From Deltaproteobacteria bacterium (lineage in GTDB: Bacteria > Desulfobacterota > Desulfobacteria > Desulfobacterales > UBA11574), in NCBI GenBank assembly GCA_019308685.1, contig JAFDHQ010000024.1, forward strand, positions 1-62,148: a stretch of DNA of 62,148 bases. Direction: 5' to 3'. The notes under the pieces are model-generated. The model saw nothing but the letters and a program-made list of their open reading frames with translations. It made no database searches and had not been told where the DNA came from. The position numbers and the translations under genes are program-made. Positions within the stretch are counted from its first letter, which is position 1. Each line of letters begins with the position of its first letter. Of the stretch, positions 18,164 to 61,315 are shown one piece after another.

Positions 18164-18532
18164 TATAGAGAATATATGTTGGATTAGTTATACAAATAAT
18201 CATATTTTTCGATCTGTCAAGGTTGTAAATGTTTGATAATAAGTTGGAGTTTCATTGGAACTTATAAGATACGCTATTATTATTTTTAATTTTAAATTCT
18301 TCTGCAAGTGTGCCACCAGCGCACTTTAAAAAGATGTATGCGTAACTGCAAAAGAGATGAGGGTGGGGCCCCTCCTCGTAGCCAGCTGACGGGAGCAGCC
18401 TTCAAAACACCTCAAGCTGCATAGGCATGGGGGCTTTGTGGTGAGCGTTGAGAAAAAGGAATGGTAAAATTCTGTATCATGTGTGTTGGTGTTAAAGCTG
18501 ATAATCTGACCATAGATCTTAGAGAAAACATA

Positions 18533-42761: not shown

Positions 42762-45700
42762 TCATGAAACACGGGAGACAATGAATTCCCCGATTTTTTC
42801 CGCAGATATTCCAAAAAGTTCTTTCATTCCCACGAGCTCAATATACTGTTCATCCCACACCACACTGTTTTCCTGGACAATGTTTTTGATGCGCTCATAT
42901 TTTCCGCCCAGGGCCTTTATCTTTACATATAGCGGAACATTTTCTTTAAACGATATATTCAACAACAGGATGTGTTCAATCAAATTCGGTGTGGCCGCAG
43001 AGGTGGATATAATGGGAATAACGATAATGCTTCGGTCGTCTTTCCGTCCTATGCCAATGTATACATTCCCTTCCCGTACAATGATTCTTTTGGTCCCCTT
43101 CAACAGGCGGTCGGTTTCCACACGGGAGGGAATCGGTTTTAAGGTACCTTCTTTTTTTATTATTTCGATGGTGGTTTGATCTGTGGGTTCACCGAGAACG
43201 TTCAAGCCTTGGATTCTGTAAAAAATGGCTCCTTTTATCCTTGAAACGATTCCCTGTAGATTTTTAAGAACCAAAATATTCCGGTTAATCAGTTGGGAAG
43301 TATGGATATTGTATTGGGTCAGTGCTTGAAACAGAATCCCTTCCAGCTTTTCACTGATACGGCTTGTCCCCACAGTGACAGTTTTGGCCTGGTGCCGGAT
43401 AGCATCCACAGGTCGGGACATGCAGTTAATTGATTCTCCCAAACACTCAAAGAGTGTGTTCAACATGTTTAGCGCCGTACCCTTTTTCCCGAAATCTATT
43501 TCAAAATCAGATACCGGTAGTCTCCCGGACAGATATTTTAAAAGCAAGGTTAGATCCGATGCTGCTTCAAGACCCATGGCAGACGGAAAACTGTTATCGC
43601 TTTTTTTCCTTCTGAATTCTTTATAGAAAAAAGCGATTTTTTCCCTGAAAGATTTTTCAAGGATCAATTCGTAAACATCCAAGCCCTTATTCGCATAGTC
43701 GTCTACAATTCTCTGGATATCTTTATTGAACCCGTATAGGAAGCGTGACCCTTCATTAATTGCCATGGCAGCATAATACCCCCAGATATGTCCCACCAGG
43801 GTGTTCAAGATGGGTGCAAAATGCTCACTGACAATCGGGACGTGAAAAACATCCGCTGCATAGGGCTCAAAACGGTTTTCACCCTCGTTGGCGATGACAA
43901 CGACCGTAGCCTTATGTGCCTGGAATATCGCCGTATCCTTTATAATATCTCCGATTACCGTTCCCCTGGCTCCGGCGGCGCAAACAAGGATCAGCGGTTC
44001 CGATGACAGGTCGATGTGTTTTTTATCCTCAACATAATCAGATGAAATCGTTTTATAACAAAGCTCACTCAGTTTGATCCTGATTTCATCTGCTGACGTC
44101 TTGTTGGGGCCGCTGCCTACGGCGGCCCAGTATGTCTTGGTTGTGGCAAGCCTTTTTGCAGAGTTTCCGATTTTGTTATGCATTGAAAGAATTTTTCTCA
44201 TATGGCCGGGAATTTCAAGAAGCTCTTTAATTTGTGATTCAACAAAGGAATCACTCCTGCGACCTTGAAGTCGGGCAATTTTAAGAGCCAGAAGAGCACC
44301 TGCAACGATCTGGGAATAGAAGGCTTTTGTTGAAGCGACCGACATCTCGATATCCCTCCCGCTACTGGTGTACATAACACCGTCAACCTTGAAAGTGATA
44401 TCCGAATCCCTGCGGTTAACGATGGCCATGGTGTAGGCGCCTCGTTCTTTCACCATATCGATGGTACGATTTGTATCTGTGGTCGTTCCGGACTGGCTAA
44501 TGGCAATCACAAGGGAGTCTGACATCATTTTTTTATCGTCATCGTCATCGAGTTTAAACCCGCTGAGCTCCGATGCTTTGATTGCACTGATAAAAAACAA
44601 GGGATTGTTCATATAGTAATTCAGAATGTCTGCACATGCATGTGCAGCAACACCGGCAGTGCCCTGTCCAACAAAAAAGATTCGTCGTATTTTTTTATCA
44701 AGCAGGGCCTTCTGCAACGTTTCAGGGAATGTCTTTTCATCCAGGGTGACGACATACCGCCGGATCTTATCTTCTTTGATTTTCCAACGATTCTGAAGGG
44801 TCTTTTCCACAGAATGCGGAGATTCCGAAATTTCTTTCAAAAAGTAATGGGGAAAATCCTGGCGGTCTATGTCTCTTGAAGTAATCTCGGTATGCTTTAT
44901 ATCATTTTTACTCAGCTTGATCGGGGTATTGTCATAATAGACTGCTTTAATGCCGTCCATGCCGCCGGCGGAATCCTGATTCAAGATGAAAATCTGTCCC
45001 CGGGTTATGCCGTCTCTGCCTTGTGCTTCCTTTTCACCGTCCATCTTGATAAAAAAGGGGGTCTCTTCAATCAGTCCGTATACCTCTGAAGTCGGCATAT
45101 AGTAATCTTTTGCAATACCGATAAAAATGGCCTGACCACTTCCTTTCTGAGCCAAAAAGATCTTGCCTGGAGCCAGATCGGTATGCATTGATATGGCATG
45201 TGACCCCTTGAAGTCATTTACTGCCAGGCGGAACGCTTCTTGAACCTCAACACCCTGGTTAATATACTTTTCGATCTGAAGTGGTATGATCTTTGTATCT
45301 GTAGTGATATCCGGAGGTATAACACCGCCGTGCTGTTCATATTCATTTTTAAGTTCCATATAATTGTCGATATCTCCGTTCAGACAAGCGTGTATGATAC
45401 CGCTTTTTGGAGCACTGCTCCCTGAGGTGCTGTTGTCCACAGGATGACAGTTGGGTTCGCTGATAGCGCCCACCGATGCCCAGCGTGTGTGGGCGGAAAT
45501 CGTATGGTATTTGGGATGGAATGAGACCAGTTTATGGAGAATCGTATCGTTTTTTATATGTTTGCGTAGGGACTGAATATTATCCCCGAGACTCCCGACT
45601 TCAGCGGCAACTTTATAGGTAAGGGCAATGGCCACACGTTTTTGACCGTTTTCGTCTCCTGACTCATTTACTTCGATTCCCAGGTTAACCAGAACATCAC

Positions 45701-46508
45701 GGGAAGACCGCTCTTTCAACTGATCATAAAGATTTTTCTTTTTGATTATTTCTTCGAATCTGTCAAATTCAGAACCCTCAAGAACAAACATCATGGATAT
45801 TCCTGCAGAATCGCGACCTCTGACTTCCAGACGGTCGATACTGTTCAGTACGGCATTGATCTGTTTGAAAATATTGACTTCATAACTGATGGGAGTCTCA
45901 TGGTCATCCCCCAAAAAACTTTTTATCTTATTGATATTATTAGCAATTTCAGAGGTAAGGCACCAGGCAATATCTTTGATAAAATCGATGCGCCGTGACA
46001 GAATATTTACTTCATCAGACTCAAGATTTCCCATTTGGAGGTCCAGCAACCGTTGTTCTTTATCAATGAATTCGAAAAAATGGTCGGCCATTTTTTCAAG
46101 TTCGCGCTGACTGTTCCGGTGAATGAAAAGATTATAAAAAAGATCATTGCATTTTAAGTTTCGCACGTTTTGGAAAAGAGCGGCAATCTGCTTTTCTCCA
46201 CCCAGATAATGATCTTCAAGATTCAAGCCATTTTGCCTGCAGTTTTCATAGCAAAGATCCTGGATTTTTATGAACATATCTTTCAAAGAGTTAATGTCGA
46301 TGCGGTCGTCTTTTTTATTCTTTTTCTTAAAAGAAACAATTCCTGCGAGTCCACAGCACAACATGTTATCTTGGCATGGTAAAAATATTATGGAACCATC
46401 CGGCAGGTCGGCCATATGTCTTCCAAAATATACATCTGCAAAAAGACAACTCAAAATCAGTCCAGGTATCTGACGGATAAGACTATAGATTTTAATTAAA
46501 CAATTCAT
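42762..46508 (-). CDS. giant GlmS-like protein: class-II (Ntn) glutamine amidotransferase domain plus two SIS domains, with large insertions and a C-terminal extension
   Basis: GlmS-type motifs are present: CGLAGIV, LEVRGRDSAG, HTRWASVG...N.HP, NGDIDNY, two SIS cores (VGQGTAG...ISQSGTTTDT and AVGSGPN) and AKTVTVG. GGGAG RBS 5 nt upstream of the ATG at 46508. Confidence 0.8.
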   Translation of the reverse strand: MNCLIKIYSLIRQIPGLILSCLFADVYFGRHMADLPDGSIIFLPCQDNMLCCGLAGIVSFKKKNKKDDRIDINSLKDMFIKIQDLCYENCRQNGLNLEDHYLGGEKQIAALFQNVRNLKCNDLFYNLFIHRNSQRELEKMADHFFEFIDKEQRLLDLQMGNLESDEVNILSRRIDFIKDIAWCLTSEIANNINKIKSFLGDDHETPISYEVNIFKQINAVLNSIDRLEVRGRDSAGISMMFVLEGSEFDRFEEIIKKKNLYDQLKERSSRDVLVNLGIEVNESGDENGQKRVAIALTYKVAAEVGSLGDNIQSLRKHIKNDTILHKLVSFHPKYHTISAHTRWASVGAISEPNCHPVDNSTSGSSAPKSGIIHACLNGDIDNYMELKNEYEQHGGVIPPDITTDTKIIPLQIEKYINQGVEVQEAFRLAVNDFKGSHAISMHTDLAPGKIFLAQKGSGQAIFIGIAKDYYMPTSEVYGLIEETPFFIKMDGEKEAQGRDGITRGQIFILNQDSAGGMDGIKAVYYDNTPIKLSKNDIKHTEITSRDIDRQDFPHYFLKEISESPHSVEKTLQNRWKIKEDKIRRYVVTLDEKTFPETLQKALLDKKIRRIFFVGQGTAGVAAHACADILNYYMNNPLFFISAIKASELSGFKLDDDDDKKMMSDSLVIAISQSGTTTDTNRTIDMVKERGAYTMAIVNRRDSDITFKVDGVMYTSSGRDIEMSVASTKAFYSQIVAGALLALKIARLQGRRSDSFVESQIKELLEIPGHMRKILSMHNKIGNSAKRLATTKTYWAAVGSGPNKTSADEIRIKLSELCYKTISSDYVEDKKHIDLSSEPLILVCAAGARGTVIGDIIKDTAIFQAHKATVVVIANEGENRFEPYAADVFHVPIVSEHFAPILNTLVGHIWGYYAAMAINEGSRFLYGFNKDIQRIVDDYANKGLDVYELILEKSFREKIAFFYKEFRRKKSDNSFPSAMGLEAASDLTLLLKYLSGRLPVSDFEIDFGKKGTALNMLNTLFECLGESINCMSRPVDAIRHQAKTVTVGTSRISEKLEGILFQALTQYNIHTSQLINRNILVLKNLQGIVSRIKGAIFYRIQGLNVLGEPTDQTTIEIIKKEGTLKPIPSRVETDRLLKGTKRIIVREGNVYIGIGRKDDRSIIVIPIISTSAATPNLIEHILLLNISFKENVPLYVKIKALGGKYERIKNIVQENSVVWDEQYIELVGMKELFGISAEKIGEFIVSRVS

Positions 46509-46524
46509 TGATACTCCCAATATC

Positions 46525-48013: not shown

Positions 48014-49936
48014 TTAACTTAGGACTGTTCCCGGTTTTACTTTTTTGTCCAGTGTTGCTACCGTACAACCATTTTCATCGATAGCGGCCAGCAACATGCC
48101 CTGGGAGAGTATTCCCATCAATTTGGCAGGTTTGAGATTTGCAACAATAATGACCTGTTTGCCTACCAAATTTTCGGGAGAATAGTCTGCAGAAATCCCG
48201 GCAATAATGGTTTTCCTTTTACCCAGGTCAACTTCAAGTTTAAGCAGTTTTTTGGCTCTGGGTATTGCTTCTGCATGGATCACGGTAGCCACCCTGAGAT
48301 CGACCTTATTGAGTGTGTCGAGGGTGATTTCGGGCTTGATGGCAGCCGGTTCAGAACTTCGATGGCTTACCTCCGGCCGTAACGTATTTCCCTTTTTTAG
48401 ATCTATCCTCGGAAAGAGTGTAATTGATTTGGGCAAATTCGTGCCGGGAATCAGGGTTTTCCATGTTTTTAGGGAATCAAGATGATAGAATGGTCTTTTC
48501 GGGTTCAACCCCAGATGTTTTTGCATGGTCTCGGCCGTTTCCGGCATTATGGGATAAATAAGGCCGGATATGATTCTTAGGGATTCAAGAAGATTATAAA
48601 TTACAACTTCAAGTTGTTTTCTGCTCGATTTCTTCTTTGCAAGTACCCAGGGCGTGGTCAGATCAATATACTTGTTCAGCTGGCTGATCAATTCCCAGAT
48701 GGCCATGAGCGCCTTGTGAAAGGCAAACGCTCCCATATTTTTTTCGTAAGTTTTAATAGCTTGCAATGCATCCGATTTCAGTCCGAACCCAAGTTCCTCT
48801 TCCATTCGGGAATCGACTTGTGGAACAACTCCTGAAAAATATTTATGCACCATTGTTAGAACCCTGCTGAACAGGTTACCCAGATCATTTGCAAGATCAG
48901 AATTAATACGCTGTACCAGTGCCTTTTCACTGAAGTTGGAATCAAGCCCGAAAACCATATCTCGCATCAGAAAAAATCTGAATGAATCGAGTCCGTAAAC
49001 ATTTTTCAATTGAAGCGGTTCTACGACATTTCCCATGCTTTTTGACATTTTGCTTTGATCGATATTCCAGTATCCGTGAACATGCAGTTGTTTAAATATC
49101 GGAATGTCCGCCGCCTTTAAAATGATCGGCCAGTAAATGCCATGGGGCTTTAAAATATCTTTGGCCACTATGTGTTGTACAACCGGCCAGAATCTTTTAA
49201 ATAGATTCCCATCCGGATATCCCAAGGCGGAAACGTAATTTAAAAGTGCATCGAACCATACATAGGTAACATAGTCTTTATCAAACGGCAGCGTGATTCC
49301 CCATTTGAGTCTTTTTTTGGGGCGGGATATGCATAGATCCTCAAGGGGTTCCTTAAGAAAGGACAGAACTTCGTTTTTATAACGTTCCGGAGTTATAAAA
49401 TCAGGATTGTTTTTAATATGATCAATCAACCAGTCCTGATAACGGCTCATCTTGAAAAAATAGTTGGATTCTTCGATAGGTTCAGGTTCGGTTTCATGGT
49501 CAGGACATTTACCGTTAACCAGTTCCCGTTCCGTATAGAAACGCTCGCATCCAAAACAGTAAAGGCCTTGATATTCACTAAAATAGATATCGCCGGCATC
49601 ATAAATTTTCTGCATGACCTGTTTAACAATCGCAATATGGGATGTATCGGTCGTTCGAATAAAACAATCGTATTTTATATTAAGTTCGGGCCAGAGCGTC
49701 CTAAAGAGCCTGCTGATCTTATCCACATACTTCCTGGGACTTAGATTCTCCTTTTTAGCAGCACGTACAATCTTGTCACCGTGTTCGTCCGTACCGGTAA
49801 GCAAGAACGTTTCTACTTGGCTCATGGAGTGAAACCTGCGGACGATATCCGCTACAATGGTTGTGTACGCATGGCCAAGATGGGGTCTGGCGTTAACATA
49901 GTAGATCGGTGTTGTTACATAAAAGGGTTTTGACAT
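48014..49936 (-). CDS. metG: methionyl-tRNA synthetase with a C-terminal tRNA-binding (Trbp111-like) domain
   Basis: The HIGH-type motif HLGH, KMSKS present as written, a CxxC zinc knuckle and the C-terminal DLRVATV...L.VDLG domain. Confidence 0.95.
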   Translation of the reverse strand: MSKPFYVTTPIYYVNARPHLGHAYTTIVADIVRRFHSMSQVETFLLTGTDEHGDKIVRAAKKENLSPRKYVDKISRLFRTLWPELNIKYDCFIRTTDTSHIAIVKQVMQKIYDAGDIYFSEYQGLYCFGCERFYTERELVNGKCPDHETEPEPIEESNYFFKMSRYQDWLIDHIKNNPDFITPERYKNEVLSFLKEPLEDLCISRPKKRLKWGITLPFDKDYVTYVWFDALLNYVSALGYPDGNLFKRFWPVVQHIVAKDILKPHGIYWPIILKAADIPIFKQLHVHGYWNIDQSKMSKSMGNVVEPLQLKNVYGLDSFRFFLMRDMVFGLDSNFSEKALVQRINSDLANDLGNLFSRVLTMVHKYFSGVVPQVDSRMEEELGFGLKSDALQAIKTYEKNMGAFAFHKALMAIWELISQLNKYIDLTTPWVLAKKKSSRKQLEVVIYNLLESLRIISGLIYPIMPETAETMQKHLGLNPKRPFYHLDSLKTWKTLIPGTNLPKSITLFPRIDLKKGNTLRPEVSHRSSEPAAIKPEITLDTLNKVDLRVATVIHAEAIPRAKKLLKLEVDLGKRKTIIAGISADYSPENLVGKQVIIVANLKPAKLMGILSQGMLLAAIDENGCTVATLDKKVKPGTVLS

Positions 49937-55500: not shown

Positions 55501-56256
55501 ATGAATATTTTATTAACAAATGATGATGGAATTTACGCAAAAGGGCTTTGGGCGCTTTATGAAAAGTTCTCACGCCGTCACCGTGTAACGGTCGTTGCTC
55601 CGGATCGGGAGCGAAGTGCTGTCGGGCATGGTATTACCCTCTATCAACCCCTTCGAACCAACATAGTAAATATCGATAACGGTTTCAAGGGGTATGCTGT
55701 GAACGGAACACCGGCCGACTGTGTCAAGATGGGCCTCATGGAAATCCTCCATGACAAACCGGATATGGTCATCTCGGGAATCAATCCCGGTGCAAATGTG
55801 GGCGTCAATATCAACTATTCCGGGACGGTTGCCGCTGCCAAAGAGGCTGCTTTATACAACGTACCGGCAATTGCTGTTTCCATACAGGGACGTCAGGCTG
55901 CCGACTATGACCACGCAGCCCATTTTACAGCACAACTGGCTGAGAATATATATAAAAAAGGACTCCCTTCCGGAACATTCCTCAATGTAAATATCCCCGA
56001 TATACCTACGGATAAAATAGAAGGTGTTCGGATAAGCAAGCAGGGAACCGCCCTTTATTCTGAATATCTTGAAAAGAGAATCGATCCTCGTAACCGCACA
56101 TATTATTGGCATGGACACGATTCCAATACTTCTTTTAAAGATCCTGAAATCGACGGCGCCGCACTTGATGATAACTTCATTTCCATAACACCGATTAAAT
56201 GCGATATGACGGATTACGAGATGATTGATGAACTGAAGCGGTGGAATATCACCTAA
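55501..56256 (+). CDS. surE: 5'/3'-nucleotidase SurE
   Basis: ILLTNDDGI N-terminus, SGINPG.N and YSGTVAAA motifs. Confidence 0.92.
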   Translation: MNILLTNDDGIYAKGLWALYEKFSRRHRVTVVAPDRERSAVGHGITLYQPLRTNIVNIDNGFKGYAVNGTPADCVKMGLMEILHDKPDMVISGINPGANVGVNINYSGTVAAAKEAALYNVPAIAVSIQGRQAADYDHAAHFTAQLAENIYKKGLPSGTFLNVNIPDIPTDKIEGVRISKQGTALYSEYLEKRIDPRNRTYYWHGHDSNTSFKDPEIDGAALDDNFISITPIKCDMTDYEMIDELKRWNIT

Positions 56257-56291
56257 TAAAAGTTCTCATTACCAACTACAAAGGCTGCAGT

Positions 56292-57257
56292 ATGAAAAAC
56301 CAGTTTATAACGGATATCAAGGCCGGGGATTCGATTGATGATATCTTTGTATTATCCGAAAAAAATCTTTCCCAGAAAAAAGATGGGAATAATTTTTTAA
56401 ATGTGAGTTTATCCGATAAAACAGGAACATTAAAAGGTGTGGTATGGGACAATGTGGATCAGATAACCGCCGGTGTAACTTCCGGTGATTTTGTATATAT
56501 TAAGGGAACTGTTAATGAATATAAAGGGACTTTGCAGCTGGTCATCAAAAAGATGGAAGCATTTTCCGCTGATGAAGTAGATCCTGCCGATTTTTTGCCC
56601 ACGACTCGCCGAAACATCGAGGACATGTTCGATCGGATTTTGAAAATAACTGCTTCCATTGAAACCGTTTATTTCAGGCAGCTTATTCAAGCATTCTTGA
56701 ATGATGAAAATTTTGTTCGAGAATTTAAAATCGCACCTGCAGCAAAAAAAGTGCACCATGCTTATATTGGAGGTCTTCTGGAACATACCCTGTCAATGGC
56801 GAGTCTGGCTGACAAAATTGCCGGGCATTACAGCGGAATTGACAGAGATCTCCTGATTGCCGGTGCAATTCTACATGATATCGGCAAAACAAGAGAATTC
56901 GAATACCAATTCAGGATAGACTACTCTGACCAGGGTCGGTTGCTGAACCATATTGTGATAGGGATCGAAATGATCGATGAAAAACTAACAGGAATTAGGG
57001 AGTTCCCGGAAGATCAGATGGTTTTGCTCAAGCACATGATTGTGAGTCATCATGGCACCCGGGAATTCGGGTCACCCGAACCACCCAAAACCATTGAAGC
57101 GGTTATACTGAATTATATTGATGAGATAGATTCAAAGGTTAGTGGCATCCGTGATTTTATGGCCAAAGAAGATCCCAATGAGCCCTGGACCTCTTATCAC
57201 AGACTGCTTGAGCGGCATTTTTATAAAGGGAAAAAGAAACAGGGAACCTCTCAATAA
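56292..57257 (+). CDS. OB-fold plus HD-domain 3'-5' exoribonuclease (YhaM-like)
   Basis: N-terminal OB fold (LSDKTGTLKGVVWD), then an HD domain (HHAYIGGLLEHT...ILHDIGK). I prefer the ATG at 56292 over the ORF-track start at 56241. Confidence 0.75.
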   Translation: MKNQFITDIKAGDSIDDIFVLSEKNLSQKKDGNNFLNVSLSDKTGTLKGVVWDNVDQITAGVTSGDFVYIKGTVNEYKGTLQLVIKKMEAFSADEVDPADFLPTTRRNIEDMFDRILKITASIETVYFRQLIQAFLNDENFVREFKIAPAAKKVHHAYIGGLLEHTLSMASLADKIAGHYSGIDRDLLIAGAILHDIGKTREFEYQFRIDYSDQGRLLNHIVIGIEMIDEKLTGIREFPEDQMVLLKHMIVSHHGTREFGSPEPPKTIEAVILNYIDEIDSKVSGIRDFMAKEDPNEPWTSYHRLLERHFYKGKKKQGTSQ

Positions 57258-57342
57258 GTGTTGGACCATTAGATAATGATACTGACCAGTGGGTTCCTAA
57301 TTAAAAAATTTAGCTCACTTTAGACATTTGAATGGGAGTGTT

Positions 57343-57984
57343 ATGTTTATCTCCTTTGAGGGAATAGAAGGTTCGGGCAAGACAACCCAGATTAACCATA
57401 TGGATAAATTTCTTCGAGACAACGGTCATGACTGTGTCATCACAAGAGAGCCGGGAGGAACCCGAATCGGAGAAAAAATACGGGCCATTCTTTTAGACCC
57501 CGAAAGTAAAGATATGGACCCTTTGACGGAACTTCTGTTGTATTCCGCTGACCGGGCCCAGCATATCAGAGAATTCATATATCCATTTTTATCGGCGGGC
57601 AAAACGGTTCTATGTGACCGTTTCTATGACGCCACAGTTGTTTATCAAGGTTTTGCAAGAGGATTAGATATCGGGTTAATAGACAAACTCCATAAATTGC
57701 TGTTTGAAGACTTAAATCCGGACATTACGTTTTTGCTTGATCTTCCCCCTGAAAAGGGGCTTTCACGAGCCTGGAAACAGATTGAAAACGGCGCAAGGGA
57801 GAGTGTTGAAACCCGATTTGAAGAAGAAAAACGTTCATTCCACAATAAAGTGCGCTCCGGTTATCTGGAGCTTGCACGCCTTGAGCCCGGCCGGTTTAAG
57901 GTTATCGACGCATCTATGGACGAGAATCAGGTTCGCAATGAAATCATAAAGATATTGTCTAGTGAAATTGATACAAATACCTAA
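57343..57984 (+). CDS. tmk: thymidylate kinase
   Basis: FISFEGIEGSGKTTQ P-loop and the DRF/Y motif. GGGAG RBS before the ATG at 57343. Confidence 0.9.
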   Translation: MFISFEGIEGSGKTTQINHMDKFLRDNGHDCVITREPGGTRIGEKIRAILLDPESKDMDPLTELLLYSADRAQHIREFIYPFLSAGKTVLCDRFYDATVVYQGFARGLDIGLIDKLHKLLFEDLNPDITFLLDLPPEKGLSRAWKQIENGARESVETRFEEEKRSFHNKVRSGYLELARLEPGRFKVIDASMDENQVRNEIIKILSSEIDTNT

Positions 57985-58007: not shown

Positions 58008-60293
58008 ATGACCCACTCAATTCTTGAGGCCATCGGTAATACACCGCTTGTTGAAATAAAAAACCTTAATCCGAATCCGCGGGTAAAAATCCTGGCAAAA
58101 CTGGAGTATTTTAACCCGGGTGGTTCCATCAAAGACAGAGCTGCTCTTTTTATGATCGAAAACGGTGAGAAATCCGGCGAACTGACCCCCGATAAAACAG
58201 TAATCGAGGCCACAAGCGGAAACACGGGCATCGGATTGGCACTGGTATGTTCGGTAAAAGGATATAAGCTTCTATTAACCATGTCCGAGTTTGCCAGCGT
58301 TGAGCGGCAAAAGATCTTAAAAGCCCGTGGCGCGGAAATTTTATTGACCCCCGGACATCTGGGGACGGATGGCGCCATTGAGGAGGTCTATCGGTTGGCC
58401 AGGGAAAACCCCGAATTATATTTTATGGCGGATCAATATAACAATCCCGCGAACTGGCAGGCCCACTATTTTGGAACAGCCGTTGAAATCTGGGAGCAGA
58501 CCGGCGGAAAGGTGTCTGCAGTTGTCGCCACCATAGGTACAAGCGGAACCCTTATGGGTCTTGCAAGACGGTTGAAAGAATATAACCCCGATATACGGAT
58601 CATCGGCGTTGAGCCTTATCTGGGGCATAAAATTCAAGGCCTAAAAAATATGAAAGAGGCTTATCGCCCTGAGATTTTTGAAAAAAAACTTCTTGATGAA
58701 ATTGTAAATATCGATGACGAAGATGCCTTTGAGATGACGAGGCAGCTTGCAAAACAAGACGGTCTATTTGTGGGTATGAGCAGTGGCGCCGCCATGGTCA
58801 TTGCTCAACAGCAGGCTGAGAAAATGGCTGAAGGTACGATCGTGGTGATATTTCCGGACGGTGGTGAACGATATTTAAGCACACCGCTTTTTACGGTGCG
58901 CGAAAAAATAGGCCTAAAACTGTTCAACACCATAGGCCGGACCAAAGAACCCTTTGAACCGCTTTTACCGGGCAAGGTCTCCCTCTATTCATGCGGGCCC
59001 ACGGTACATGCAAGAATGCATTTGGGAGAATGCAGGCGTTTTGTATTTTCAGATCTTTTGTATCGTTATCTTAAATACAGGGGGTATGATGTTACACATA
59101 TCATGAACATAACAGATCTGGACGACAAGACCATAAACGGGTCTGAAAAAGCGGGTGTAAAGCTTTCTCAATTTACTGAAAAACATATCGATTCCTTTAA
59201 AAAGGATTTAGATTTTCTTGAAATTAAGCCGGCCTCTAAATACCCTAAAACCAGCGAACATGTCGAGGATATGGTTGCGTTGGCTGAAAAACTGGTGAAA
59301 AAAGGATATGCATATGAGAAACTAAGATCTTTGTACTTTGATATTTCTCGCTTTTCCGATTATGGCAGTCTGTCTGGTATCGATATCAACAAAATAAAAC
59401 TGGGTGCTACCGTAGATCTTGATGAATATGAAAAGGATAATCCAAGAGACTTTACGCTTTTTAAAAGATCCAGACTCTCTGAACTGAAAAGAGGAATATT
59501 CACTAAAACCGAATGGGGCAATGTGCGTCCGTCATGGCACATTCAGTGCGTTGCCATGGCAATGAAATATCTTGGGGAAAGCTATGATATCCACACCAGC
59601 GGCCGAGAGCTGGTTTTCCCCCACAACGAAAATGTCATCGCAATTGCCGGTGCTATGACCGGCAAACCCCTTGCAAGATACTGGGTGCACTGCGACCGGG
59701 TCTTGGTGGACGGTAAAAAAATAGACGAACAGGGGACAGAACTTACCACCCTTTCCGATCTGGCAGATATGGGATATTCCGGCAGGATGATCAGATACTG
59801 GTTGCTTTCCGTACATTACAGAAAACCCGTTGTTTTTTCAAAGAAAAGGCTTGAAGATGCCAAACGTTCCTTAAAAAGGCTTGATGCCTGTATCTATTCT
59901 CTGGTTCACGTGAAATCGGGCGCTTCTTCTTATCCCGAGTTGGACCAGCTTTTGTACGACTTAAAACACGGTTTTGTCAGCGCTATGGATGATGACCTGA
60001 ATATATCGGCCGCCATGGCCTCGATTTTTAAAATTGTAAAAAAGGTGAATATCCTGACTCAGGAAAAAAGAATAGATCCGGACGGTGCGGCAAATATTGT
60101 GGATGCGTTTCGTAACATAGATTCTGTATTAAAAATATTCGATTTTCAAGATGAATTTCATGACCCTGAGGTCGATCGCCTGATCAAACAACGAGATAAC
60201 GCCAGGCTGGAGAAAAATTGGGATCTTGCCGATAAGATTCGGGACCAGTTAAAAGCCATGGGGATTACCATAAAAGATAAGAAATCGATTTGA
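58008..60293 (+). CDS. fusion protein: cysteine synthase (CysK/CysM-type PLP enzyme, aa 1-~298) plus a cysteinyl-tRNA-synthetase-like domain (aa ~302-761) with degenerate class-I motifs
   Basis: The N-terminal half has SIKDR (PLP lysine), TSGNTGIG, GTSGT and SSGAA. The C-terminal half aligns along its whole length with CysRS (LFNT..R.KE.F.P, CGPTV, NITD.DDK, WHI.C, FPH.EN, AMDDDLN and a C-terminal KNW..AD.IRD.L...GI domain). The HIGH position reads HLGE (59019-59030) and the KMSKS position reads KIDEQ (59718-59732). It is a single uninterrupted ORF. Confidence 0.85.
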   Translation: MTHSILEAIGNTPLVEIKNLNPNPRVKILAKLEYFNPGGSIKDRAALFMIENGEKSGELTPDKTVIEATSGNTGIGLALVCSVKGYKLLLTMSEFASVERQKILKARGAEILLTPGHLGTDGAIEEVYRLARENPELYFMADQYNNPANWQAHYFGTAVEIWEQTGGKVSAVVATIGTSGTLMGLARRLKEYNPDIRIIGVEPYLGHKIQGLKNMKEAYRPEIFEKKLLDEIVNIDDEDAFEMTRQLAKQDGLFVGMSSGAAMVIAQQQAEKMAEGTIVVIFPDGGERYLSTPLFTVREKIGLKLFNTIGRTKEPFEPLLPGKVSLYSCGPTVHARMHLGECRRFVFSDLLYRYLKYRGYDVTHIMNITDLDDKTINGSEKAGVKLSQFTEKHIDSFKKDLDFLEIKPASKYPKTSEHVEDMVALAEKLVKKGYAYEKLRSLYFDISRFSDYGSLSGIDINKIKLGATVDLDEYEKDNPRDFTLFKRSRLSELKRGIFTKTEWGNVRPSWHIQCVAMAMKYLGESYDIHTSGRELVFPHNENVIAIAGAMTGKPLARYWVHCDRVLVDGKKIDEQGTELTTLSDLADMGYSGRMIRYWLLSVHYRKPVVFSKKRLEDAKRSLKRLDACIYSLVHVKSGASSYPELDQLLYDLKHGFVSAMDDDLNISAAMASIFKIVKKVNILTQEKRIDPDGAANIVDAFRNIDSVLKIFDFQDEFHDPEVDRLIKQRDNARLEKNWDLADKIRDQLKAMGITIKDKKSI

Positions 60294-60313: not shown

Positions 60314-61315
60314 ATGAAACCCGTTTATTTTCCATTTACATTTATTTCAAAACCTGTTTGCCAAACACTTGCAGCTTGTTTCAGGCAGACCGTCGTGTAT
60401 CAAATCTCAAGCATAAAAATACCGGATGAGATGCAACATTGGGGAGAAAGGGGCATTCTCGACATTCGGATGCCCGTGAAATATGACGGAGACAAACTTG
60501 ATGCAGTTGTCAAACAATACCGTTCCTGGGCAACTTCCCACCAGGGAAGCGAAATCGCTTTTTTAAAATCCAGAGCCCATGAGATTCCGTTTTTTGATGA
60601 AAACTCGACAAGACAGATAACGGCTGATATCAAAAGCAAGAGGGATCGACAAAACCGTTCGCAAAAAAAATCCGACCCTCTGCTGAATGCCGGATTGTTT
60701 CTTCATCTTGCCCGGGAATATGACATTCAGAACCTCACATTAAGTCAGGATCTTCAGGCCATAGAAGCCATTGAACAGGATTTCATGAGAGATCTTAAAG
60801 GCGAAGACCAGGTTCTTGATGAAGAAACTGCTCTGGAAAAAACATTGGAAAATCATGACCCGGGACATTACATGACAAAAGAGCGGATACACGCATGGAG
60901 CCGTCTTATGCAACAGGATCGACAAGATTCCGGACTTTTTGTTACCACCAGCAAGTCTGTTTTTGAGTCTTTGATCGACAGCGCGCCCGAGGCGGAACTT
61001 GTGGTTGTTTTAGACGCCATACCGGTGGTTGACAAAAGGGGTGAAGCTCTAGAAACATGGCAGGATGAATTAATGAAACATCTTGAGATGCTTGCGACCC
61101 ATGACTGGCCTGCACCGACAGATAACATTAATACTGTACCACAAGACTCCGGATGCGAGAAAAATGTTTTTTTATCTCTCTATATTGTGCCCGGTAAAAC
61201 ACCGCACGAATATTTTGCTTGTTATGCTGAAAACGATTCGTTGGATGTCAAAGATAAAAATAAGGGAACAAAATTCAAAAATACGTTGTTAGGACTTATC
61301 CAAAAGTATAGTTGA
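60314..61315 (+). CDS. hypothetical protein with no recognisable motifs
   Basis: 333-aa ORF starting 20 nt after the fusion gene, with a GAGAGGA RBS. A strong terminator follows it. Confidence 0.6.
   Translation: MKPVYFPFTFISKPVCQTLAACFRQTVVYQISSIKIPDEMQHWGERGILDIRMPVKYDGDKLDAVVKQYRSWATSHQGSEIAFLKSRAHEIPFFDENSTRQITADIKSKRDRQNRSQKKSDPLLNAGLFLHLAREYDIQNLTLSQDLQAIEAIEQDFMRDLKGEDQVLDEETALEKTLENHDPGHYMTKERIHAWSRLMQQDRQDSGLFVTTSKSVFESLIDSAPEAELVVVLDAIPVVDKRGEALETWQDELMKHLEMLATHDWPAPTDNINTVPQDSGCEKNVFLSLYIVPGKTPHEYFACYAENDSLDVKDKNKGTKFKNTLLGLIQKYS

Follow-up and report, generated by a model that had tools for sequence, protein, structure and literature searches.

A cysteine synthase fused to a CysRS-derived module that lacks the adenylation signatures: a candidate tRNA-Cys-recognising pseudo-synthetase in Desulfobacterota and related bacteria

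Paralogs of aminoacyl-tRNA synthetases (aaRSs) that are dead as synthetases have been repurposed repeatedly, and HisZ, the HisRS-like domain of GCN2, MshC and the cyclodipeptide synthases have each opened a field. In GCN2, a dead synthetase domain is fused to an effector, binds uncharged tRNA and reports amino-acid shortage. HisZ is an inactive HisRS paralog that acts as the regulatory subunit of the ATP phosphoribosyltransferase HisG-S, with control mediated by its vestigial ligand site (PMC9734150, PMC9437257). The surveyed reviews of aaRS paralogs name MshC and CysRS* as the paralogs of cysteinyl-tRNA synthetase (CysRS). MshC still has HIGH and 289-KMSKS-293 and produces Cys-AMP (PMC9736012), and CysRS*, an extra CysRS paralog of some Desulfobacterales, is proposed to charge a SelC*-type tRNA-Cys-UCA, a role deduced from an engineered mimic based on D. 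tiedjei CysRS, CysRS* itself being inactive in E. coli (PMC5389517). These reviews do not mention the protein considered here, a fusion of a cysteine synthase and a CysRS homolog (CysK-CysRS) encoded in a 62,148-nucleotide stretch of DNA (the window) that comprises positions 1 to 62,148 of contig JAFDHQ010000024.1 from a Desulfobacterales genome (GCA_019308685.1, Desulfobacterota). Full-text literature searches found no paper describing this architecture, in agreement with the initial annotation of the window, whose author knew of no characterised example.

The fusion joins a fold-type-II cysteine synthase that depends on pyridoxal phosphate (PLP) to a full-length CysRS homolog (residues 303-761). 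The initial annotation had read these two domains from one uninterrupted open reading frame (ORF) of 761 codons, and a motif check on the translation placed every motif that it listed at the expected residues (SIKDR at 40, TSGNTG at 69-74, GTSGT at 177-181 and SSGAA at 258-262 in the first half; CGPTV at 329, WHIQC at 510, FPHNEN at 537 and AMDDDLN at 659 in the second). A Pfam scan assigned PALP to residues 6-284 (E 1.8e-74), tRNA-synt_1e to 316-619 (E 6.5e-83), DALR_2 to 656-711 and CysS_C to 719-759. Among NCBIfam profiles, the protein exceeds the cutoffs of cysKM (TIGR01136; 361.5 bits against 344.15) and of the cysS equivalog TIGR00435 (380.8 bits against 340), and it is the latter score that leads pipelines to name it 'cysteine--tRNA ligase'. 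The same database name is carried by the best 120 database clusters (76-94% identity), which come from metagenome-assembled genomes (MAGs) of Desulfobacterales and from metagenomes and all have the same architecture. In addition, the exact protein with the same neighbours was found in GCA_029933875.1 (NCBI), ERZ23491059 (ENA) and 3300033141 (JGI). A stop or frameshift near 58900-58915, which would divide the frame into two genes, and an assembly artefact at the junction are excluded by the presence of the same protein in three independent assemblies and by the more than 120 clusters that share its architecture. The junction DNA at 58896-58913 reads CGCGAAAAAATAGGC, with a run of six A followed by an out-of-frame TAG, which may give frameshift miscalls in lower-quality assemblies and explain some of the 'standalone' fragments in databases.

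The replacement of both class-I signatures, reported in the initial annotation, was confirmed by residue alignments to four solved CysRS structures (8qhp, 3tqo, 1li5 and 6ujd), in which HLGE falls on HIGH/HLGH and KIDEQ on KMSKS without any offset; these alignments revealed no intact copy of either motif elsewhere in the protein. The fourth HIGH position is Glu in 117 of 121 close homologs, as against Asn or His in all 85 canonical CysRS, and the equivalent of K269 (numbered as in E. coli CysRS) is Glu in 104 of the 121 and never Lys in distant fusions. The MetRS gene of the same window (48014-49936, minus strand), which serves as an internal control, has canonical HLGH and KMSKS. Of the positions with at least 93% conservation across the 85 canonical CysRS, 62 in all, fusions have lost Y33, H/N40, W184, W194, G201, G204, S210, G226, G227, Q241, K269 and S270 and, in part, H37, G39, D229, M267 and N273. 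This set takes in both signatures, HIGH and KMSKS, together with the segment G226/G227/D229; from the CysRS structure, we take it to be the adenylate site and its entrance. The residues that took their place vary by lineage at both the HIGH site (HLGE, DLSG, HLGV, QLSE, QVAT, NLSL) and the KMSKS site (KIDEQ, KMSAE, KISRA, KMTYD and others), indicating relaxed constraint and not a new conserved site. Judged from sequence, the adenylation machinery of the CysRS half is gone.

The structural core, the connective peptide 1 (CP1) insertion and the positions of the Zn/cysteine pocket (C28, G29, T31, T68, W205, H206, C209, H224, H234 and H235) are kept in fusions. The Zn ligands of E. coli CysRS are C28, C209, H234 and E238 (structure 1LI5). 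The earlier statement that such ligand positions are retained holds for C329, C514 and H539, three of the four ligands, and for W510, the equivalent of W205; it fails for the fourth, the E238 equivalent, which is V543 in the window protein (FPHNENV) and is Val in only 2 of 121 close homologs and Glu in 106. Overall, the CysRS half shares with the canonical E. coli enzyme (PDB 1LI5/1U0B) the domain order, about 40% identity, the ligands C28, C209 and H234, W205 and the anticodon contacts R427/W432/D436/R439, and differs from it in HLGE, KIDEQ, the loss of G226, Q241, W184, W194 and G201, the Val at E238 and the PLP enzyme at its N-terminus.

This loss is graded across a family that extends well beyond the closest relatives. 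Full-length fusions were also detected at 43-60% identity (50% clustering) and, among the matches listed in a scan of reference genomes, in Desulfobacterales, a Desulforapulum autotrophicum MAG, Desulfatibacillum, Desulfocapsa, Desulfobulbus, Desulfopila, Caldimicrobium, Desulfovibrionales, Desulfocurvus and Polyangiaceae. When the CysRS parts were placed in a neighbour-joining tree, every bacterial fusion fell into one clade together with a few standalone proteins; this clade spans Desulfobacterales, Desulfobulbales, Desulfovibrionales, Caldimicrobium and Polyangia. When canonical residues were counted at 20 adenylate-site positions, canonical CysRS, including those of Desulfobacterota, scored 20/20; a Pseudobdellovibrionaceae cysS beside a separate cysK (locus L013) scored 17/20; intermediates (P0142, P0122, L009, P0280 and P0137, with K269R, H40L and Q241I) scored 10-13/20; Desulfobacterales fusions scored 1-6/20; and Desulfovibrionales fusions, in which C28, T68, C209 and E238 are lost as well, scored 1-3/20. 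The fusion of the cultured Desulfovibrio ferrophilus, which lies on a complete chromosome and is named only 'cysteine synthase' by NCBI, has no equivalent of C28, HIGH, C209 or KMSKS, implying that tRNA-Cys must be charged by another enzyme in this organism.

At locus L013 (183-2431, in a Pseudobdellovibrionaceae MAG), cysK and a motif-intact cysS (HIGN, KMSKS) are separate genes 64 bp apart, and this cysS already has the fusion-clade markers W184L, W194Y and G201V; the pair looks like a pre-fusion or pre-decay state, or a secondary split. Two standalone CysRS-like proteins also fall inside the fusion clade, namely the P0137 cluster (468 residues, 58 members from JGI metagenomes; HIGL/KMSRS) and P0142 (HIGT/KMARS), both with Q241I and 10-13 of the 20 positions; they may be either active synthetases or a free-standing dead module. 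By contrast with the bacterial fusions, a Nanoarchaeota CysK-CysRS fusion (P0124, MFW6014224.1, from a DPANN MAG), which has the same two-domain order and a similar length (768 residues), retains HIGN, KMSKS and all 20 adenylate-site positions; it branches among ordinary archaeal-type CysRS, indicating an independent fusion event, and its sequence suggests that it is probably a true bifunctional cysteine synthase/CysRS.

The decay series bears directly on whether the window protein could still be an unusual but active CysRS, that is, a bifunctional cysteine synthase/Cys-tRNA ligase in which other residues stand in for HIGH and KMSKS. Only four of the 20 adenylate-site positions are canonical in it, K269 and H40 are both Glu, which reverses the charge at residues that bind the ATP phosphates, and G226, Q241, W184 and G201 are lost too. 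Some class-I enzymes do tolerate a non-canonical KMSKS, and the score above the TIGR00435 cutoff, the three remaining Zn ligands, CP1, the anticodon contacts and the existence of the motif-intact Nanoarchaeota fusion all fit an active enzyme; however, the replacement residues vary from one lineage to another, sister lineages have decayed as far as non-function, the MetRS of the same window is canonical and canonical CysRS is widespread in the phylum. A further point for activity is that no second cysS was found in the same genome by two seeded searches, which did not include a whole-genome scan. Taken together, an active synthetase appears highly improbable.

The PLP half gives a different picture. 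Of 61 core positions that are near-invariant in 60 standalone relatives, 58 are retained in the fusion. Nine diverse fusions, the most diverged included, show no variation at the catalytic lysine K42, the Asn loop TSGNTG, Q143, the PLP-phosphate loop GTSGT or SSGAA, with the Ser that contacts pyridine N1. By these conserved residues, the PLP half is an intact cysteine synthase. It scores below both the CysK and the CysM equivalog cutoffs, which means that neither its subtype nor its substrate, O-acetylserine or O-phosphoserine, is fixed by the profiles; the unchanged TSGNTG loop, which holds the alpha-carboxylate, suits a free amino acid. The window protein ends in Ile, as do the tails of CysE and CdiA with which the active site of CysK is plugged; mimicry of such a tail was rejected, as the C-terminal residue is not conserved (Ile in 8 of 121 homologs).

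The dead half has nevertheless been maintained as strictly as the enzyme half. The ratio of nonsynonymous to synonymous divergence (dN/dS) between the window gene and its closest DNA relatives was 0.053 over the CysRS-like part of the gene, compared with 0.060 over its PLP part, although synonymous sites were saturated (proportion of synonymous differences, pS, 0.63-0.84; of nonsynonymous differences, pN, 0.05-0.17). These values point to strong purifying selection on the whole protein, with the two halves equally constrained. They also weigh on the explanation that the fusion is a relic of a cysK-cysS operon, whose dead half binds no ligand and is kept for folding, solubility or oligomerisation of the PLP enzyme. 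Graded decay, up to a Zn pocket that has gone completely in Desulfovibrionales, does resemble erosion, and the split pair at L013 suggests an operon origin, but such a scaffold is very unlikely considering the equal dN/dS of the two halves, the persistence of the full 460-residue module without truncation over order- to phylum-level divergence, and the invariance of surface-exposed anticodon contacts that are dispensable for folding (PMC13449415).

These contacts suggest that recognition of tRNA-Cys has been spared. In E. coli CysRS, the anticodon is contacted by R427, W432, D436 and R439 (PDB 1U0B), and an engineered enzyme in which all four were replaced was still active with a changed anticodon (PMC13449415), indicating that the contact residues serve recognition and not folding. 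In the window protein, R729, R733, W738, D742, R745 and D757 correspond to R423, R427, W432, D436, R439 and D451, respectively. Fusions conserve these positions as canonical CysRS does (with W, F or Y at 432), in 121 close sequences, 17 distant ones and 6 of the Desulfovibrionales type. Within the close family, no part of the protein varies more than its last 46 residues, and five of the seven invariant positions there are anticodon contacts (hypergeometric P = 9e-5). Moreover, CP1, which has been linked to how the acceptor stem's first base pair is recognised (PMC5389517), is more strongly conserved than any other stretch of the protein; its motif reads KLGA here, compared with MSGA in D. tiedjei and QAGA in E. 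coli, and R168T and W184L/F are changes specific to the fusions.

Conserved anticodon-recognition residues in a protein that has lost catalysis would also be expected of an RNA-binding regulator, in which the module binds a tRNA-Cys-like mRNA element, as ThrRS binds its operator, or sequesters tRNA-Cys while the synthase half serves as a metabolite sensor, in parallel with CysK acting for CymR in Bacillus. CysK is indeed a known moonlighting partner in regulation, which adds to the case. On the other hand, the acceptor-stem-linked CP1 as the most conserved region speaks for a whole tRNA and not a mimic of the anticodon arm (PMC5389517), a search around the gene detected no structured RNA element, and the PLP catalytic residues, needless for a pure sensor, are fully retained, all of which makes this explanation improbable.

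The explanation that we favour, with a probability of roughly 0.42, is a cysteine synthase carrying a dead, tRNA-Cys-recognising module that couples cysteine synthesis to the status of cysteine or tRNA-Cys. Its structural part, an active cysteine synthase joined to a non-adenylating module that binds tRNA-Cys, is very probable on the conservation data, and the idea of a PLP sulfhydrylase tethered to an adenylation-impaired tRNA-Cys-binding scaffold, put forward in the initial annotation, gains support from the PLP core, the adenylate-site losses and the anticodon contacts. The specific mechanism of a sensor or regulator is argued by analogy and is held only tentatively. According to this proposal, the PLP half would work as an O-acetyl- or O-phosphoserine sulfhydrylase, and the CysRS-derived module, unable to form cysteinyl-adenylate, would recognise tRNA-Cys through its GCA anticodon and probably also through the acceptor end. 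In most lineages, the window protein included, the module would still have a Zn/cysteine pocket, which could recognise the cysteinyl moiety of charged tRNA-Cys. As a ligand-binding regulatory domain that reads cysteine and/or the state of tRNA-Cys (uncharged or Cys-charged), it might tune the tethered PLP domain so that cysteine output follows translational demand, while the charging of tRNA-Cys proper would fall to another, canonical cysS in the ispD-ispF-cysS-uvrB arrangement that is common in the phylum.

The analogy is drawn from HisZ, likewise a non-aminoacylating aaRS paralog physically coupled to a biosynthetic enzyme of its cognate amino acid. The fusion resembles it in lacking catalytic signatures while staying under purifying selection and in the link, here covalent, to a cysteine synthase. 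However, HisZ is a class II protein and a separate subunit, has no anticodon-binding function and senses histidine and not tRNA, whereas the fused module is of class I and keeps its anticodon-recognition residues, and its regulatory role is proposed by analogy. The HisRS-like domain of GCN2 differs in being eukaryotic, of class II, responsive to many tRNAs and coupled to a kinase, while the fusion looks specific for tRNA-Cys and has a biosynthetic enzyme as its effector.

Several observations weigh against this proposal. The Zn-ligand Cys is missing from every Desulfovibrionales member and from about 8% of the close homologs, implying that cysteine sensing is not a universal function of the family; tRNA recognition would then be the only universal function left. 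A canonical cysS beside the fusion in the same genome was not found by the two seeded searches mentioned above, short as they were of a whole-genome scan. The fusion-specific CP1 changes R168T and W184L/F may mean that the acceptor end is handled unlike in CysRS, with chemistry at the 3' end of the tRNA and not mere sensing, and the conserved anticodon contacts could equally serve a tRNA-like mRNA element. An AlphaFold2 prediction (42-sequence alignment) reached a mean predicted local distance difference test (pLDDT) of 63.6 and a predicted template modelling score (pTM) of 0.48, with the CP domain below 50; it is too poor for use, and contact between the two halves is not inferable from it. 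Allostery, tRNA binding and cysteine binding are all read from conservation patterns.

The main rival account of these features is chemistry on a tRNA template. Here the dead synthetase would dock an aminoacyl-tRNA-Cys and the protein would act on the esterified residue without ATP: the PLP domain could convert Ser-tRNA-Cys or O-phosphoseryl-(Sep-)tRNA-Cys to Cys-tRNA-Cys or persulfidate Cys-tRNA-Cys, or else the CysRS-like pocket could transfer the cysteinyl group of Cys-tRNA-Cys to an acceptor that the PLP domain produces, in the style of cyclodipeptide synthases or Fem transferases. The fusion does share with cyclodipeptide synthases a class-I Rossmann fold, the loss of HIGH and KMSKS and a retained aminoacyl pocket, and these enzymes use aminoacyl-tRNA without ATP (PMC3105412). 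The conservation of the anticodon contacts and CP1, CP1 changes that could redirect the 3' end, the very short inter-domain linker and a PLP domain that scores nearest to CysM-type enzymes, some of which use O-phosphoserine, would also fit. Nevertheless, the TSGNTG loop and 58 of the 61 PLP core positions are unchanged, which suits a free amino acid and not an ester at A76 of tRNA. SepCysS, the known PLP enzyme of the SepRS/SepCysS route, is of fold-type I, whereas the PLP domain of the fusion is of fold-type II (PALP) and not SepCysS-like. SepRS itself is apparently uncommon in deltaproteobacteria, a group named once in the main text of a survey (PMC5424206). Furthermore, Desulfovibrionales members have dropped the aminoacyl/Zn pocket and yet retain the fusion, and there are no acceptor-pathway genes nearby. 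Chemistry of this kind is therefore unlikely. Stated as a tRNA-Cys-dependent enzyme of sulfate reducers, in which Ser-, Sep- or Cys-tRNA-Cys would dock through its anticodon and acceptor stem and be acted on by the PLP domain or the ATP-less pocket, providing a SepCysS-independent route to Cys-tRNA-Cys or a Cys-tRNA persulfidase or transferase, the reading is less likely still.

Of the roles first suggested for the fusion, tRNA-dependent Ser/Sep-to-Cys chemistry finds no support, the invariant TSGNTG loop being suited to a free amino acid, and channelling of new cysteine has no obvious purpose toward a domain that is unable to adenylate. A third, the ligation of cysteine to a non-tRNA acceptor as by MshC, is disfavoured. 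MshC is also a CysRS paralog that was recruited outside translation with its Zn/cysteine pocket kept (PMC9736012), but it is actinobacterial, has HIGH and KMSKS and no anticodon domain, and the fusion is the reverse on both motifs and anticodon domain; in addition, the fusion scored 190 bits against the MshC profile TIGR03447 (cutoff 485.1) and has no thiol-biosynthesis neighbours. CysRS* differs in another way, being without an anticodon domain, having a PTVS CP1 motif and adjoining selC*/selB*, whereas the fusion has the anticodon domain, KLGA in CP1, lost ATP motifs and no tRNA or selB neighbours in the window. The cysteine persulfide synthase (CPERS) activity of CARS similarly joins CysRS, PLP and cysteine sulfur chemistry, with K73, K76, K266 and K269 as the proposed PLP lysines (PMC5660078). 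Of these lysines, the fusion has K73 and K266 but not K76 and K269, and a persulfide synthase site of the CARS type was rejected for it; the PLP enzyme domain that it carries is a genuine one.

The features of the locus are collected in Table 1.

Table 1. Features of the CysK-CysRS fusion gene and its immediate neighbours (window coordinates)
Feature	Coordinates	Strand	Basis
Whole fusion gene, 761 aa (amino acids) plus stop, ATG start	58008..60293	+	ORF list; identical product in three independent assemblies
Cysteine synthase domain (fold-type-II, PLP), aa 1-296, regarded as intact	58008..58895	+	Pfam PALP, NCBIfam cysKM, core-position conservation
SIKDR, aa 40-44, with Schiff-base lysine K42	58125..58139	+	S[IV]KDR in 120/121 homologs
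Short linker TVREKI, aa 297-302 (about 6 residues)	58896..58913	+	Domain limits from profile matches and PDB alignments
CysRS-type Rossmann-fold domain, aa 303-619; adenylate site degenerate, Zn/cysteine pocket largely kept	58914..59864	+	Pfam, PDB alignments, conservation footprint
Degenerate HIGH, H-L-G-E, aa 338-341	59019..59030	+	Aligned to HIGH/HLGH of four solved CysRS
CP1 insertion, aa 431-520, containing KLGATVDLDEYEKDNPRDFTL at the CP1-motif position	59298..59567	+	Entropy 0.1-0.3
Degenerate KMSKS loop, K-I-D-E-Q, aa 571-575	59718..59732	+	Alignment with KMSKS in four CysRS structures
DALR-type helical domain, aa 656-711	59973..60140	+	Pfam DALR_2, E 2e-9
C-terminal anticodon-binding domain, aa 716-761	60153..60290	+	Pfam CysS_C
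surE, HD/OB-fold nuclease-like gene and tmk, upstream and co-directional	55501..57984	+	ORF list; conserved order in Desulfobacterales
333-aa ORF, 20 bp downstream of the fusion	60314..61315	+	Synteny in L002-L006, L081

The gene order lptD / surE - HD/OB nuclease-like gene - tmk - fusion - 333-aa ORF is conserved in Desulfobacterales, and surE, the nuclease-like gene, tmk and the fusion probably form one operon; promoter and terminator matches around it were at chance level only. The 333-aa ORF, which gave no match in Pfam, NCBIfam or PDB, follows the fusion in Desulfobacterales only and shows 21-29% identity among loci; it may be a lineage-specific partner. When neighbouring genes of the fusion loci were compared, no partner gene was conserved across distant lineages, where the neighbours include a histidine kinase, NrfD, a glycosyltransferase, DciA, YkuD, an ATPase of the type II secretion system and permeases, suggesting that the gene behaves as a self-contained housekeeping unit. 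Genes for cysE, sulfur carriers, thiol synthesis or nonribosomal peptide synthetases were not found near the fusion, nor were a tRNA-Cys gene, T-box, riboswitch, structured RNA element or selB. At three loci, a tRNA-Arg(TCT) gene lies directly downstream of the fusion (L008 8347-8423, uncultured Desulfocapsa; L010 5762-5838, uncultured Desulfopila; L012 2523-2599, a MAG labelled Pseudomonadota), with at least 53% identity of the three loci to each other's type; this order is conserved among them.

Canonical CysRS of 486-492 residues with all 20 adenylate-site positions is common in Desulfobacterota MAGs, where it occurs in the context ispD-ispF-cysS-uvrB, an arrangement absent from the window. 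No second CysRS-like gene was present in the window or in 80 genome loci (about 1.2 Mb). The region at 36.7-41.1 kb of the window was considered as a possible ispD-ispF-[cysS]-uvrB slot and rejected, as its genes encode an H+-pyrophosphatase, Pth, L25, phosphoribosyl pyrophosphate synthetase and IspE.

The representative search also returned proteins of other architectures, P0159 (858 residues), P0225 (711 residues) and P0154/P0157/P0164/P0181/P0213 (675-995 residues), some of which are CysRS with long N-terminal extensions and others of which have PALP at the C-terminus of larger proteins. Two close cysteine-synthase-like genes were seen at L027 (9968-12291, Desulfofundulus thermobenzoicus, 0.5 kb apart) and L051 (3612-6929, a Phycisphaerae MAG, 1.4 kb apart); these pairs are paralogs and not fusions. 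Elsewhere in the window, positions 18359-18482 (plus strand) match the Rfam group II intron family D1-D4-2 (62.1 bits, E 4e-10), which points to a group II intron in this housekeeping region, and positions 42762-46520 (minus strand) hold a 1252-aa ORF with a SIS domain at residues 610-746 and a weak glutamine-amidotransferase match at 340-463; the ORF is far larger than GlmS-type proteins, and most of its length falls outside these two matches.

The CysK-CysRS fusion is an uncharacterised protein, widespread in several orders of sulfate reducers and their relatives, that is annotated wrongly as a tRNA ligase. Inventories of aaRSs and metabolic reconstructions of Desulfobacterota may consequently list a CysRS that does not function and overlook a cysteine synthase. 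The family also provides a natural test of which CysRS residues adenylation, cysteine binding and tRNA binding each require: its decay series begins with a split operon, passes through a fusion with KMSRS and a stage without the ATP site, and ends with the Zn pocket gone as well, and an independent, intact archaeal fusion lies outside it. The literature searched contained no CysRS-derived pseudo-synthetase that retains tRNA recognition, and the fusion could link tRNA-Cys/cysteine status directly to cysteine synthesis at the protein level in organisms that live in sulfide.

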